Assembly (NCBI GenBank): GCA_048939465.1
Contig: JBHLPL010000003.1
Span: 20,142-52,141, forward strand
Direction of reading: 5' to 3'
Length of the DNA: 32,000 nt
Source of the DNA: Promethearchaeota archaeon
Lineage (GTDB): Archaea > Asgardarchaeota > Odinarchaeia > Odinarchaeales > JBHLKK01
Both the position numbers and the translations under genes were made by a program. Under the pieces are notes generated by a model that had not been told where the DNA came from, ran no database searches, and saw only the letters and a list, made by a program, of their open reading frames with translations. Below, piece by piece: positions 2,308 through 25,194 of this stretch (positions are counted from its first letter, which is position 1; each line of letters opens with the position of its first letter).

Positions 2308-2420
2308 TGGTGCGAGGGGTGGGACTTGAACCCACGAAGGCATACGCAAGAGTGTTGTACCACTTTTTCTACGCCAAAGGATCTTGAGTCCTTCCCCGTT
2401 GACCGCTTGGGTACCCTCGC
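2308..2420 (-). tRNA. tRNA-Leu(CAA), CCA encoded, with ~25-nt intron in the variable arm
   Basis: Acceptor GCGAGGG/CCCTCGC+ACCA; anticodon arm AAGGA-CTCAAGA-TCCTT; T arm GTGGG-TTCAAGT-CCCAC; variable region is 41 nt instead of ~15. Confidence 0.93.
2343..2367 (-). other. Non-canonical tRNA intron (relaxed BHB) in the variable arm
   Basis: Central helix CGTA/TGCG, 5' bulge GAA, intron stem AGTG/CACT, 3' bulge TAT. Removal gives a 16-nt arm TGGCG-TAGA-TGCCTTC and an 88-nt tRNA. Confidence 0.72.
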
Positions 2421-19265: not shown

Positions 19266-21152
19266 ATGTACGGAGGATACTGGGGTAAAATACTTAGAAT
19301 AGACTTAACCAATGAAAAGATAACCCATCAAACATTGAAAGACGAAATGGCCAGGAACTATATAGGCGGCGTAGGCCTCGCGACTAGAATACTGTATGAT
19401 GAGATCCCTAAAGATACAAATCCGCTTGGTCCCGATAATGTCTTCGTTTTCGCAGTAGGGCCTTACCAGGGCGGCAGTGCAATTCTTGGTAGTGGACGAT
19501 TTGCTGCTTGCGCAAAATCCCCGCTAACTCATATATGGGGGGAGTCCCTAGGCGGTGGGTATAACGCGGAAGAGTTCAAGAAGTGTGGTTTTGATGCCTT
19601 GGTAGTAACAGGTAAAGCCTTGAGACCAGTTTATCTATGGATTCATGATGGAGAGACAGAGATTAGGGATGCTTCTCATCTCTGGGGAAAAACAGATGGA
19701 TTTGAGACAGAAGACGCTCTGAAGAAGGAATTGGGAGATAAGAAGATACAAGTAGCCCCAATAGGGCCTGCTGCAGAAAACCTAGTGCGATACGCAGGTC
19801 TTATCTGCAACTACGGACACGGATGTGCTGGTAGAATGGGTATGGGCGCTGTCATGGGGTCTAAGAAACTTAAAGCTATCGCCCTCCGAGGATCTAAGAA
19901 AATACAGATAGCAAAACCAGATGAGCTAAAAGCCATAAAGAAGGAGCTTCTGCCAAAAATCAAAGACGCTGGTTTCACGAAGGATAACCGTGATCTTGGA
20001 CAGGCTATGGCTCAAATACCACGTGAAGATAATGGGCTCCTACCAATGAAGAATTTTAAGCAAGGACATTGGAGAGAGGGTGCCCTTAAAACGGGAGTTA
20101 CACGCGAGGAAGGGGAGTTCAACGAAGTATTAAAACCGAAGCCTGATGCTTGCTCCAACTGTGTCATGGGTTGCCACAGACGCGTTACGATGCAGGGACC
20201 TGCAAAATATGCCATGGACAGCTACGGACCCGAGTATGAAACGGTCGCAATGATAGGAGCGGACTGTCTTATTGACAATTTGCTGGCGATAAACAAAGCA
20301 AATGAACTGTGCAATCGCTATAGTATGGATACTATAGAGTTCGGTGCGATGGTTGCTTTTGCAATGGAAGCCTACGAAACGGGAAAAATAACCAAGGATG
20401 AATTAGGTGGCATTGAACTAAACTGGGGAGACGGTGATGCAATGCTAGCACTGTTAGAGAAAATTGCCAGAAGAGAGGGGAGAGTTGCAAGACTATTAGG
20501 TGAGGGGCTAAAGCCTGCAGGAGAAGAACTGGGATGTCCCGAGATGGCCATACACGTCAACGGTGCATGCGTACCAGCTCACGACCCTCGAGCATTCCTC
20601 TCAATGGCTGTTGAAACTGCAACATCAACCAGAGGAGCATGTCACCTTCATGGATTCCCTGAGGCAATAGAGTTGGGAGTTACCTTCCCTGAGGCAGGTC
20701 CTGAGCTAGCCGAAGAACTGGATCGATTTGATACGAAATACAAGGGATTGGCTGCGGCAAAATTCCAAGATCGTCAGGCAGTTAACAACTCAACCGTATG
20801 GTGCTTCTTCTATGAATTTTCTGGAGTAGACTGGCCATACACAACAAAACTGCTGAACGCCGTGACAGGGTGGAGTTTGACGCCACAAGAACTCTTGAAG
20901 ATAGGTGAGAGAATCATAAACCTACAACGAATGTTCAACATAAAACACGGCCTCACGAAAGCCAACGATACCCTGCCTAAGAGATTACTCAAGGAGCCTC
21001 ATAAGGGAGGTGGCTTACAGGAGCAGCTAGCACCCAAGTTCAAAGTAATGATGGATGAATACTACAAAGCCAAAGATTGGCCAAACGGTATCCCAAGTGA
21101 GGCAAAGCTAAGAGAACTGGGACTGGACTTCGCCATAAAAGACCTTCCATAG
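19266..21152 (+). CDS. aor: Aldehyde:ferredoxin oxidoreductase (AOR family, W/Mo-pterin)
   Basis: YWGKILRIDL, KSPLT, GAVMGSKKLKAI, CSNCVMGC, GPEYET, GACHL. True start ATG 19266 after AGGAGG. Confidence 0.95.
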   Translation: MYGGYWGKILRIDLTNEKITHQTLKDEMARNYIGGVGLATRILYDEIPKDTNPLGPDNVFVFAVGPYQGGSAILGSGRFAACAKSPLTHIWGESLGGGYNAEEFKKCGFDALVVTGKALRPVYLWIHDGETEIRDASHLWGKTDGFETEDALKKELGDKKIQVAPIGPAAENLVRYAGLICNYGHGCAGRMGMGAVMGSKKLKAIALRGSKKIQIAKPDELKAIKKELLPKIKDAGFTKDNRDLGQAMAQIPREDNGLLPMKNFKQGHWREGALKTGVTREEGEFNEVLKPKPDACSNCVMGCHRRVTMQGPAKYAMDSYGPEYETVAMIGADCLIDNLLAINKANELCNRYSMDTIEFGAMVAFAMEAYETGKITKDELGGIELNWGDGDAMLALLEKIARREGRVARLLGEGLKPAGEELGCPEMAIHVNGACVPAHDPRAFLSMAVETATSTRGACHLHGFPEAIELGVTFPEAGPELAEELDRFDTKYKGLAAAKFQDRQAVNNSTVWCFFYEFSGVDWPYTTKLLNAVTGWSLTPQELLKIGERIINLQRMFNIKHGLTKANDTLPKRLLKEPHKGGGLQEQLAPKFKVMMDEYYKAKDWPNGIPSEAKLRELGLDFAIKDLP

Positions 21153-21794: not shown

Positions 21795-23321
21795 CTAGGG
21801 GGGTATTCGCTTCTTCATATCATTGAGCTTTGTCCGTATAATCTGGTTTGTAAGTTGTGGATCTACCCTGCCTTTAGTTTTTTTCATAACCTGTCCGATC
21901 AAGTAGTTTACCGCACTTTCCTCGGACAATGCATCTTCTACGGCTTCGGGAAACTCGGTGAAAACCTCATCGATTACTGTATTGATTTCTTCCTCATCGC
22001 TGATTATTGTCAATCCCCTGTCCCTAACGATTTCTGCCGGATGCTTTCCAGTTCGTACCATCTCCGGCAAGATGCTTTTGGCAATCTTCCCACTGATGAC
22101 GCCCTCATCTATCAGACGCAGAAGATCAATGAGACCTTGCGTCGTTATTTTGGATTCGTTTATCTCTAAACCAGTTTCGTTTAGGTTTCTAAGCAAATCA
22201 CCCATGATCCAGTTGCTAATCCGCTTTGAATTCGGATAGAGTTTTACACTTTCCTCAAAGAAATCCGCAAGTTGTTTACTGCCTGTGAGTACAACTGCAT
22301 CATGTTTAGGCAATTTATATTCCTTCATAAGTCGAGTGCGTCTCGCGTCTGGCAGTTCGGGCATTAGTTCTTCGGCTTCCTCGATCATTTCTTTTGTAAT
22401 GTCTATAGGTACCAGATCTGGTTCAGGGAAATAGCGATAGTCCTGCTCCGTCTCCTTGGTTCTCAGCGAAATCGTAATCCTGCGAGCCTCGTCCCAGTGT
22501 CGTGTTTCTTGCTTTACACTCACACCTCTTCTTAGTAATTGCTTCTGCCGAAGTATCTCATACTGAATCGCACGCCTTACCTCTTTGAAAGAAGAAACGT
22601 TTTTGATTTCTACTCTTTTTCCTCCAGCCAGAGATATATTGGTATCACATCTCATTGCTCCAGGTAGACTGCCATCAGATATTCCCAGATGTTCAATAAT
22701 GGAGCGTAATTTGCGAAGGAATGTTTGCGCTTCTTCAGGAGAACGCATATCTGGTTCAGTAACCACCTCTAGGAGAGCCATACCGGCACGATTATAATCT
22801 ATTAGGGCATAAGGAGACGTCTCAATAGAACCGAAATATGTAATGCGGGCCGGATCTTCTTCTAAGTGCATACGACTTATTCTGATTTTTTTGGATCTTC
22901 CATCTATATGTATTGTTACATAGCCGTTTTCGGCGAGGGCAACTCCGCCAACTCTATCATACTGACTTATTTGGAAGTTCTTTGGCATGTCAGGATAGTA
23001 GTAATTCTTCCTGAAAAAGAGCAATGTATTCGAAATCTTGGCATTCAAAGCCAAAGCTGCCATAATAGCATATTTTATGACTTCTTTGTTTACAACAGGA
23101 AGAGAACCAGGAAGTCCTATACAAGTGGGGCATACCAGTGTATTTGGCTCTTTTCCGTGATAATCGGCAGAGCAACTACAGAACAGCTTGGTTTTGAGGG
23201 TTGTAAGTTGAATATGGCATTCAAGACCTATTATTACAGTCTTTTCAACCTTTTTAGGGTCGGTTTCTTCCATTTTGATCCACATTCTCTTTCTTTTTTC
23301 ACCCTTCCTCGTGATTTTCAT
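21795..23321 (-). CDS. gatB: Asp/Glu-tRNA amidotransferase subunit B
   Basis: [60 protein letters not shown] overlap with the gatA stop; alternative start 23273. Confidence 0.97.
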
Positions 23322-24839
23322 AGAGTAGGCTTGATTTTTCTTCTTAGACCTTTTCTTTCAAAAGCATAGGCAACTCTCAGTATAATATTTTCCTTTAGGA
23401 AGTTTCCCATGATTTGTATGCCAATCGGAAGACTGCCATGGTAGCCGCAAGGCATAGAAAGTGCAGGAATACCTGCAAGATTTATTGCTGCCGTATCCAT
23501 ATCTGCCATATACATTTGAAGAGGATTTACTGTCCGCTCGCCTATCTTAAATGCCATTACAGGCGAGGTTGGACCAATCAGTACGTCAAACTTGCTGAAC
23601 GCTTGCTCAAAATCTTGCTTTATCAATGTACGGATTTTAAGGGCCTTCAGATAGTACAGGTCAAAATAACCTGCGGTTAAGGCATATGTTCCCAACATAA
23701 TTCGCCGTGTAACCTCCTGTCCAAAGCCTTCACGCCTACTCTCTGAGAATACTTTATTCCAGTCTCCAATTGCTTTCGCCCTAAGTCCGTATCTTATGCC
23801 ATCATATCTTGCCAAATTGGAGCTTGCTTCAGACATTGCAATAATGAAATAGGTGGGAATTGAATACCTTATGTGAGCCAATGAGACTTCTTCATACGAT
23901 GCTCCCAAGTTTTCCAGAGCATGTATTGCATTCCATACGCTTTTGGCAACTATTTCATCAGTGCCCTCGCCAAAGAATTCTTTCAGAACACCTATTTTGA
24001 TGCCTTTTACATCATCTTTAAGGAACTTCAGATAGTCCCCAGATTTGACTTTGAGGGTCGTACTATCTTTAGGATCGTAACGAGCGACTTCACCTAGAAG
24101 AAGAGCACAGTCGTTTACATCCTTGGTCACTGGACCGATCTGTTCCAGACTACATGCAAACGCAATTAAGCCATAGCGGCTAACCAATCCATATGTTGTT
24201 TTTAGTCCGACAACGCCGCACAAGCTTGCTGGCTGCCTAATGCCTTTGGCTGTACGCTTATCTACGTACAGTTTCCACCAGTATCGCTCCCTAGAGCGAG
24301 AATTGTCTCATCGGCAGCCACTGCAGCAGCACTCCCGCCAGATGATCCACCAGGAACTCTTGAGAGATCGTAAGGATTATACGTCGGCCCAAAATAGCTA
24401 TACTCAGTGGACGAGCCCCTTGCTAATCCTCACCGCGTAAGTGAGGATTTATCGCAAACTCGTCCATATTTGTCTTTCCTATGATTATACCGTCCTGCTG
24501 TTTAATGCGTTCAACCACGGTCGCATCATACGGAGGAATATAATTCTCTAACATATGAGATGCACAGGTTGTTCGGACTCCCAGAGTACATATGTTATCT
24601 TTAAACGCTATTGGAATGCCAGCTAGAGTACCTACGGGTTCATTTCCTCCAATCCTCTTATCGATCTCCTTAGCTTTTTTGGCTGCGGCTTCTCTCGTTA
24701 GGGTTACATACGCATTAATCCTGTCCTCGACTCTGTCTATCCTATCGAAAACGGCCGAAGTGAGTTCTTCTGCGGATATTTCCTGACTGAGTATTTTCTC
24801 CTTGAGTTCATGGGCGGTTAATTCATTCAGTTTTGCCAA
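23318..24839 (-). CDS. gatA: Glu/Asp-tRNA amidotransferase subunit A, three exons: 24839-24451, 24418-24273, 24243-23318 (486 aa)
   Basis: Spliced length 389+146+926=1461 nt=487 codons. Restores [29 protein letters not shown] and [17 protein letters not shown]; GAGGTGA RBS before TTG. Confidence 0.93.
24244..24272 (-). other. gatA intron 2 (29 nt, BHB type)
   Basis: A-CTGTACG-TAGATAAG-CGTACAG-CCAA-AG; helix GTGG/CCAA, bulges AAA and AGG; removal yields GGA A|GC ATT (G-S-I). Confidence 0.88.
24419..24450 (-). other. gatA intron 1 (32 nt, BHB type)
   Basis: A-AATCCTCAC-TTACGCG-GTGAGGATT-AGCA-AG; helix TGCG/AGCA, bulges ATA and AGG, 10-bp exon stem; removal yields GCG AT|G GGC (A-M-G). Confidence 0.9.
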
Positions 24840-24852
24840 TCGGATTCACCTC

Positions 24853-25143
24853 TTAGATCATTTTGGGACCCTTAATGAAGTTTTTTTCCTTTTCTGGAGC
24901 ATTCATCAGAGCGGCTTCTACGGGTAAGCATTCTTTTGGAGTATCGTCTCGATAGACATTCTTCGAGCCAGTGACATGGTATGTAGGCTCGACGTCTGAA
25001 GTGTCAACCTCATCGATTTCCCTGAAGTACTCCAAAATGTCATTGAACTGTGCGGTGAAAAGGTGTTTTTGTTCCTCAGTTAATTTGATTCTCGCCAACC
25101 ATGCGATGTGCTCCACTTGTTCTTTTGTTATATGGGATTTCAT
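24853..25143 (-). CDS. gatC: Asp/Glu-tRNA amidotransferase subunit C
   Basis: ITKEQVEHIAWLARIKL, YRDD, NAPE..FIKGPK; start ATG 25143 after GGTGGTG. Confidence 0.95.
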   Translation of the reverse strand: MKSHITKEQVEHIAWLARIKLTEEQKHLFTAQFNDILEYFREIDEVDTSDVEPTYHVTGSKNVYRDDTPKECLPVEAALMNAPEKEKNFIKGPKMI

Positions 25144-25194
25144 AATACACCACCAAGAATTGCCCGTTAGGCAATGATAGGAATGTTCAAACAT

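Follow-up and report, generated by a model that had tools for sequence, protein, structure and literature searches.

The stretch of DNA analysed here, the window, is 32,000 nt long (positions 20,142 to 52,141 of contig JBHLPL010000003.1, assembly GCA_048939465.1) and comes from a Promethearchaeota archaeon of the order Odinarchaeales, whose population was recovered from mangrove and sediment metagenomes. Its minus strand carries an operon in the order gatC-gatA-gatB. We found that gatA, which as a whole spans 24839-23318, is interrupted by two short inserts, each lying in a motif of the bulge-helix-bulge (BHB) type, as seen in archaeal tRNA introns. Taken together, the data described below make it highly probable that gatA is a three-exon gene, in which EndA would cut the mRNA introns out and RtcB would join the exons. 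The features of the locus are the following, with a slash marking a predicted cut.

24853-25194, minus strand: gatC, the upstream gene of the operon, an open reading frame (ORF) of 113 amino acids (aa); the counterpart in a near relative is called with PF02686 GatC
24451-24839, minus strand: gatA exon 1 (predicted), with a TTG start at 24839 and the AU of a split Met codon at its 3' end
24419-24450, minus strand: gatA intron 1 (predicted), 32 nt, phase 2 (AU/G), with an in-frame UAG
24409-24465, minus strand: the whole BHB motif of intron 1, as read in the letters of the sequence
24273-24418, minus strand: gatA exon 2 (predicted), 146 nt, comprising the G of the Met codon, 48 codons and the A of a split Ser codon
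24244-24272, minus strand: gatA intron 2 (predicted), 29 nt, phase 1 (A/GC), with an in-frame UAG
24238-24283, minus strand: the whole BHB motif of intron 2, as read in the letters of the sequence
23318-24243, minus strand: gatA exon 3 (predicted), comprising the GC of the Ser codon, 307 codons and the TGA stop
21795-23321, minus strand: gatB, the downstream gene, an ORF of 508 aa; the relative's counterpart is called with GatB_N and GatB_Yqey

In the ORF listing of the window, gatA appears only as two pieces, one of 138 aa (24839-24423) and one of 301 aa (24223-23318), and the 48 codons between them fall in the third frame. This split had already been pointed out in a sequence-only reading of the window, together with two hairpin inserts of 32 and 29 nt. 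We located the inserts at 24450-24419 and 24272-24244, and found that each one shifts the frame and presents an in-frame TAG when it is read from the upstream exon. Precise removal of both inserts yields a coding sequence of 1461 nt, which encodes a 486-aa protein followed by a single stop. The TTG start of gatA is preceded by a GAGGUGA Shine-Dalgarno sequence, and its TGA overlaps the ATG of gatB as AUGA. Public gene calls for the window's genus contain gatA fragments only.

The same reading had claimed that cuts after the second bulge nucleotide would restore a 486-aa GatA with all amidase-signature motifs, and comparison with protein family models supports the restored GatA. Exon 1 matches positions 2-115 of TIGR00132 gatA and 1-104 of Pfam Amidase, exon 2 matches positions 117-164 and 106-153, and exon 3 matches positions 166-463 and 155-445, respectively. 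The three exons therefore tile both models with exactly one model position absent at each junction, namely the residue of the split codon. The TIGR00132 scores of the exons were 133.4, 70.9 and 386.4 bits, a rough sum of about 591 against a cut-off of 481, with the exons scored separately. Junction 1 restores AU/G, the Met in DEFAMGSS, and junction 2 restores A/GC, the Ser in DTGGSIRQPA. The Gly/Ser-rich amidase signature motif is encoded by exon 2. Aligned to the GatA chain of S. aureus (2df4_A), exon 2 corresponds to residues 130-177 and exon 3 to residues 179-474, so the codon rebuilt at junction 2 aligns to Ser178. By the GatCAB structure papers, it is Ser178 that acts as the nucleophile in the Ser-cisSer-Lys triad of the S. 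aureus amidase.

We examined the RNA geometry of the two inserts. In intron 1, the outer helix is formed by GGACGAGUU (24465-24457) and GGCUCGUCC (24417-24409) and has 9 bp, including two U.G pairs. Its central helix pairs UGCG (24456-24453) with AGCA (24424-24421) through three Watson-Crick pairs and one G.A mismatch, and is flanked by the bulges AU/A (24452-24450) and AG/G (24420-24418). The inner hairpin of intron 1, AAUCCUCAC with GUGAGGAUU, consists of a 9-bp helix and a 7-nt loop. Intron 2 is built in the same order: a central helix of GUGG (24278-24275) and CCAA (24249-24246), again with three Watson-Crick pairs and one G.A mismatch, bulges AA/A (24274-24272) and AG/G (24245-24243), and an inner hairpin of CUGUACGU and GCGUACAG with an 8-bp helix and a 6-nt loop. 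Its outer helix (UACUG with CAUUA) is weak. Intron 1 is thus a strict motif with outer helix, two bulges around a central helix, and inner helix (hBHBh'), and intron 2 is a relaxed BHB.

The inner hairpin is strong in both introns. GatA is restored in each case by cutting behind the second of the three nucleotides in every bulge, where the archaeal splicing endonuclease canonically cuts. By a scan of the 1.96-Mb genome, a motif of intron 2 grade has a chance of about 1.7e-6 at any one position and length. For a motif of intron 1 grade this chance is about 1e-8, and none was present in the reversed-genome control. No Rfam family matches the intron-bearing region of gatA. We found no other copies of the gatA introns in the genome, indicating that they are not a repeated mobile element.

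To place the inserts among relatives, we aligned gatA across the order Odinarchaeales, which comprises seven species genomes, six of which carry gatA; the window's genome falls in a second family of this order. An alignment of this kind had been put forward in the sequence-only reading as a check, and it showed both inserts at identical codons in relatives. Intron 2 lies at the identical codon in all six gatA-bearing genomes, with lengths of 29, 29, 29, 28, 29 and 30 nt. Every copy contains a stop, even the 30-nt copy that keeps the frame, and removal always rebuilds AGC or AGU. In the six-genome alignment, the inner helix of intron 2 is 100% paired and five of its eight pairs are compensatory; six pairs of the intron changed on both sides, and none of 500 shuffles reached the observed co-variation score. 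The central helix is 92% paired, and one of its pairs joins a synonymous Gly site of the exon (GGU/GGC) to an intron base (A/G) with which it co-varies. Odinarchaeum has four pairs in the central helix of intron 2 (GCGG with CCGU). When the register of intron 2 was slid, pairing dropped to 28-42%.

Intron 1 is limited to the window's genus, in which three lineages carry it with lengths of 32, 29 and 32 nt. The 29-nt copy belongs to the same-genus relative G002; its loop is shorter, and it contains one C.U mismatch. The copy of the third lineage, found in a Logan assembly, has 32 nt and a C-to-U change giving U.G. Changes of intron 1 within the genus either fall in the loop or yield G.U pairs or a single mismatch. 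Intron 1 was not found in Odinarchaeum or in the other archaea sampled. In a set of 80 gatA loci from other archaea and some bacteria, 77 have no interruption, and the remaining three loci belong to Odinarchaeia. These distributions indicate that intron 2 is older than the split of the two Odinarchaeales families, and that intron 1 is a later gain in one genus.

One side observation concerns the outer helix of intron 1, whose two strands in the exons are the Asp-Glu and Ser-Ser codons (GAC GAG and UCG UCC). These codons are identical in the three lineages of the genus despite an overall synonymous divergence (dS) of about 0.9. There are hints that the RNA structure of intron 1 constrains synonymous sites (window 24409-24465).

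We then asked how the spliced reading frame has evolved, by comparing the window's genome (G000) with G002. The ratio of nonsynonymous to synonymous substitution (dN/dS) was 0.095 overall at a dS of 0.92, and by exon it was 0.13 (exon 1), 0.015 (exon 2) and 0.09 (exon 3). Purifying selection on each of the three exons is thus strong. The genome encodes a single gatA. No asparaginyl-tRNA synthetase (AsnRS) scored above the family cut-off in the genome, and a sub-threshold match is probably an aspartyl-tRNA synthetase. GatE is encoded in the genome. With no AsnRS above the cut-off and GatE present, GatCAB is probably needed for Asn-tRNA and is probably its only route in this genome, which is 91% complete.

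The genome contains two genes of the tRNA_int_endo family (PF01974), encoding EndA-1 (204 aa) and EndA-2 (191 aa). EndA-1 is similar to 3p1z_B, the catalytic subunit in the heterotetramer of Aeropyrum pernix (E 1.5e-44); it aligns without gaps across the segment with the Crenarchaea-specific loop, and the GPGIDH context of the catalytic His is kept. EndA-2 has a Val at the position of the catalytic His of M. jannaschii EndA. For Asgard archaea, an EndA of (alpha-beta)2 type has been reported, and a relaxed substrate specificity has been connected with it (PMC5829648). The two proteins fit this type, with EndA-1 as the putative catalytic alpha subunit and EndA-2 as the putative non-catalytic beta subunit.

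The genome also encodes two RtcB genes. One of them (G000:C31:2961-5708; L033, L035) is an open frame of 973 aa, in which the Pfam match comes in two parts (1-57 and 45-426) about 1.4 kb apart. This RtcB looks like it carries an intein insertion, judging from its domain layout.

tRNA genes of the genome are themselves rich in introns. ARAGORN called 15 tRNA genes, and 12 of them contain introns. In addition, an Rfam tRNA match in the window (2311-2420, minus strand) spans 110 nt for 71 model positions, leaving an intron of about 39 nt, and this gene was missed by ARAGORN in default mode. This suggests that many tRNA genes of the genome are too interrupted for calling. These results agree with reports of heavily interrupted tRNA genes in Asgard archaea (PMC11291895; bioRxiv 10.64898/2026.10.13.758758).

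Based on these results, we propose the following pathway for gatA. The gatCAB transcript would fold into BHB motifs at the two sites, and a heteromeric EndA with a catalytic alpha and a non-catalytic beta subunit would cut after the second nucleotide of each bulge, releasing introns of 32 and 29 nt. RtcB would then ligate the exons, rebuilding the AUG (Met) and AGC (Ser) codons. The spliced junctions would read UUUGCGAU followed by GGGCUCG, and GGUGGAA followed by GCAUUAGG. The 486-aa GatA would be made from the spliced mRNA only, while reading of the unspliced mRNA would end after 138 codons. We infer this cleavage and ligation of the gatA mRNA from the inserts with their geometry, conservation and co-variation, from the selection on the exons and from the enzyme genes. 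The removal of two BHB introns by the tRNA machinery, as the sequence-only reading had suggested, is in this way supported comparatively, by position, co-variation, selection and the presence of the enzyme genes.

Several observations weigh against this interpretation. Intron 1 fits a loose motif equally well in a 30-nt register that is slid by one base, so structure alone leaves its cut sites unfixed; only the 32-nt register restores GatA, and it is the coding sense that selects it. For intron 1, co-variation was read from three close relatives, and a double compensatory change is not among the differences seen. In intron 2, pairing of the outer helix is just 40%, which makes the motif relaxed rather than strict hBHBh', and in the window's genome both central helices contain a G.A mismatch. 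Two look-ups of sequencing runs that contain this DNA listed no RNA run. Finally, a genome scan for the BHB motif alone, combined with an ORF-joining test, could not separate real introns from background. The scan counts in the real and the reversed genome were 17,700 versus 17,724 and 37,247 versus 37,738, and the ORF-joining filter was swamped by gene boundaries and chance open frames.

We considered four other explanations for the inserts. The genome is a metagenome-assembled genome of 152 contigs, and in such an assembly the inserts might be assembly or sequencing artefacts. However, the same inserts are present in the Logan assembly and in six genomes that were assembled independently, a closed one among them, and other metagenomes contain diverged copies in which intron 1 is intact. 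A 9451-nt contig from a different study covers the whole of gatA with four differences and no gaps, and a strain of about 92% identity from another study's metagenome keeps intron 1 at the same length, with changes confined to the loop except for one A-to-G change giving G.U. No intron-less gatA DNA was seen in the four sequencing runs compared. The probability of an artefact is therefore negligible. It is also extremely improbable that gatA is a decaying pseudogene or that its pieces act as separate polypeptides. This idea would account for the gene callers giving 138-aa and 301-aa fragments only, but it is at odds with purifying selection on the exons, since dN/dS is low over the whole gene and lowest in the exon that no ORF caller finds. 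Two families, at a dS near saturation, have both retained the interruption. The genome has neither a second gatA nor an AsnRS above the cut-off, and gatC and gatB are intact, with gatB translationally coupled to gatA. Were the pieces separate polypeptides, the residue aligned to Ser178 would be lost, and no start codon would be available for the middle one. Both artefact and decay beside a second gatA had been named in the sequence-only reading as outcomes that would overturn it, and the independent assemblies, the single gatA and the selection on its exons speak against them.

The remaining two explanations concern how the inserts are passed or removed. Ribosomes are known to hop over hairpins in phage T4 gene 60 and at the byp elements of yeast mitochondria, and a ribosome might likewise hop both gatA hairpins or shift frame there, so that the RNA would not need to be spliced. 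Both inserts are stable hairpins containing stops, and at insert 1 GCG could serve for take-off and GCA for landing, both being Ala codons. But the junctions split codons (AU/G and A/GC), and hopping cannot rebuild a split codon. A hop from GCG to GCA would put Arg or Lys in place of the conserved Met, any hop over insert 2 would lose the residue aligned to Ser178, and the candidate landing codons vary among relatives. Such recoding would also leave the conserved 3-nt bulges and the co-variation between the central helix and the synonymous exon site unexplained, and we regard it as very improbable. Alternatively, the inserts may be removed from the RNA by another nuclease and ligase or by self-cleavage, with the likeness to BHB motifs being partly coincidental. 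The weak outer helix of intron 2 and the mismatch in both central helices would be in keeping with this idea. On the other hand, the bulge sizes, the spacing of four positions and the cut site are those of an EndA substrate, as they also are in kae1 and pyrG, and the region has no match to an Rfam family. The genome moreover encodes a heteromeric EndA, the type reported to accept relaxed motifs (PMC5829648). Removal by such another activity is thus quite improbable, and splicing by EndA and RtcB is the explanation we favour for both inserts.

Other protein genes of the genome are interrupted in a similar way. In kae1/tsaD (PF00814), the reading frame is broken between model positions 62 and 64 (FSQGPGL/GPCLR) by an insert of 25-31 nt. 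We found this insert in all five genomes tested, namely the window's genome (G000:C69:30130-30154), its genus-mate, two Odinarchaeum genomes and G040, a genome of another Asgard family (L123-L127). The kae1 insert has the canonical hBHBh' form: its outer helix is 8 bp long and its central helix 4 bp, and the bulges have 3 nt each. Its occurrence in these five genomes suggests that it may be an old mRNA intron reaching beyond the order Odinarchaeales.

In pyrG (G000:C116:17805-17835), a 31-nt interruption lies inside the SGIGKG nucleotide-binding motif when compared with the uninterrupted Odinarchaeum protein. It shows a central helix of GGGC and GCCU, the bulges AU/A and AA/A, and an irregular inner stem. 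The ahcY genes of the window's genus (G000:C118:13-951; L118 in G002), when aligned to the Odinarchaeum protein, show about 60-90 extra in-frame bases that include TGA and TAG stops, and their frame also changes, by about 22-29 nt. The gene cbf5 is uninterrupted in Odinarchaeales genomes, the window's included. In G040, a gap of about 29 nt divides cbf5 (C1:1483416-1483444, L214) at model position 70, possibly an Asgard counterpart of the classical cbf5 intron.

We also carried out a census of the genome with the ORFs of the closed Odinarchaeum genome. The genome-specific interruptions it returned are gatA intron 1, pyrG, ahcY and two others. This census is a lower bound, as introns common to both genomes are invisible to it. 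At G000:C69:18514-18544 and G000:C68:10910-10945, frame-breaking inserts of 29 and 31 nt were observed relative to Odinarchaeum; the genes concerned are homologues of Odinarchaeum ORFs of 669 and 747 aa.

Since kae1, pyrG and ahcY of the same genome carry inserts, the interruption of gatA looks like part of a lineage-wide habit and not like a gatA-specific circuit. We consider it rather probable that tRNA-type micro-introns have spread lineage-wide through the mRNAs of Asgard archaea, with gatA as one visible part. In that case, essential genes (gatA with two introns, ahcY, pyrG and kae1) would need splicing by EndA and RtcB before translation. A bolder version, in which splicing capacity gates translation-related enzymes as a checkpoint, is unlikely. 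The sequence-only reading had gone further and imagined a feedback loop from tRNA maturation through gatA; we found nothing in support of it, although we do not reject it outright, and the similar inserts in pyrG, ahcY and kae1 weaken it.

Archaeal mRNA introns of the BHB type have been described before. Splicing of the cbf5 pre-mRNA intron of Crenarchaeota was shown experimentally (Watanabe 2002; Yokobori 2009, PMC2738675). The gatA introns resemble it in being BHB introns within a coding sequence, in their predicted dependence on the tRNA-splicing endonuclease and a ligase, in their restriction to a lineage and in their gain and loss. They differ in gene and phylum (Asgard, Odinarchaeales), in that one gene carries two introns of 29-32 nt each, and in that one of these splits the codon aligned to Ser178; moreover, we infer splicing for gatA, whereas for cbf5 it is experimental. 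The other known case is the BHB intron in the 5' untranslated region of Haloferax volcanii HVO_1309, an mRNA substrate of the archaeal splicing endonuclease (PMC7714728). In contrast to gatA, the Haloferax intron lies in the untranslated leader and leaves the coding sequence uninterrupted. A 2020 paper named cbf5 as the only additional example of an archaeal mRNA BHB intron. Our own literature searches, which did not cover subscription journals, likewise returned only cbf5 and HVO_1309 as archaeal mRNA BHB introns, in line with the remark in the sequence-only reading that two such introns in one housekeeping mRNA were not recognised as described. Within the same coverage, searches for BHB, mRNA, kae1 and RtcB in the literature on Asgard archaea and Odinarchaeia gave work on tRNA and rRNA only.

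With the BHB introns of archaeal pre-tRNA and pre-rRNA, the gatA inserts share the 3-nt bulges, the 4-bp helix, the cut site and the predicted enzymes. Unlike those introns, they sit in a polycistronic mRNA, the exon halves of their helices are codons under protein constraint, and the reading frame of gatA depends on exact ligation. A likeness also exists to the unconventional splicing of HAC1/XBP1 mRNA and to animal 'SOS splicing' of transposon hairpins, where a short structured insert in an mRNA is removed independently of the spliceosome with RtcB-type ligation (PMC12779559). These systems differ from gatA in their endonuclease and recognition rules, and are eukaryotic and regulated or defensive. 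On present comparative evidence, the endonuclease very probably splices the gatA inserts as mRNA introns of the same kind as that of cbf5, here in a new phylum and with two in one gene.

In the textbook view, archaeal protein genes are uninterrupted; within coding sequences, the only exception published is the intron in cbf5 of some Crenarchaeota. The novelty of gatA is that a probably essential translation enzyme would need two exact splicing events, in an Asgard archaeon with intron-rich tRNA genes. In practice, gene callers report such genes as fragments, so that reconstructions of metabolism and estimates of completeness for these genomes wrongly count essential genes as broken. If our interpretation of gatA is true, the tRNA-splicing enzymes would routinely process mRNA in this lineage, and one may then ask in what order splicing and the coupled transcription and translation proceed. 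The gatA introns would also be a data point for the debate on the origin of split genes. If the lineage-wide spread is true as well, the kae1 intron, which occurs in another Asgard family too, and the order-wide gatA intron 2 would be old, and obligatory mRNA splicing of 'genes in pieces' would exist in the closest prokaryotic relatives of eukaryotes.

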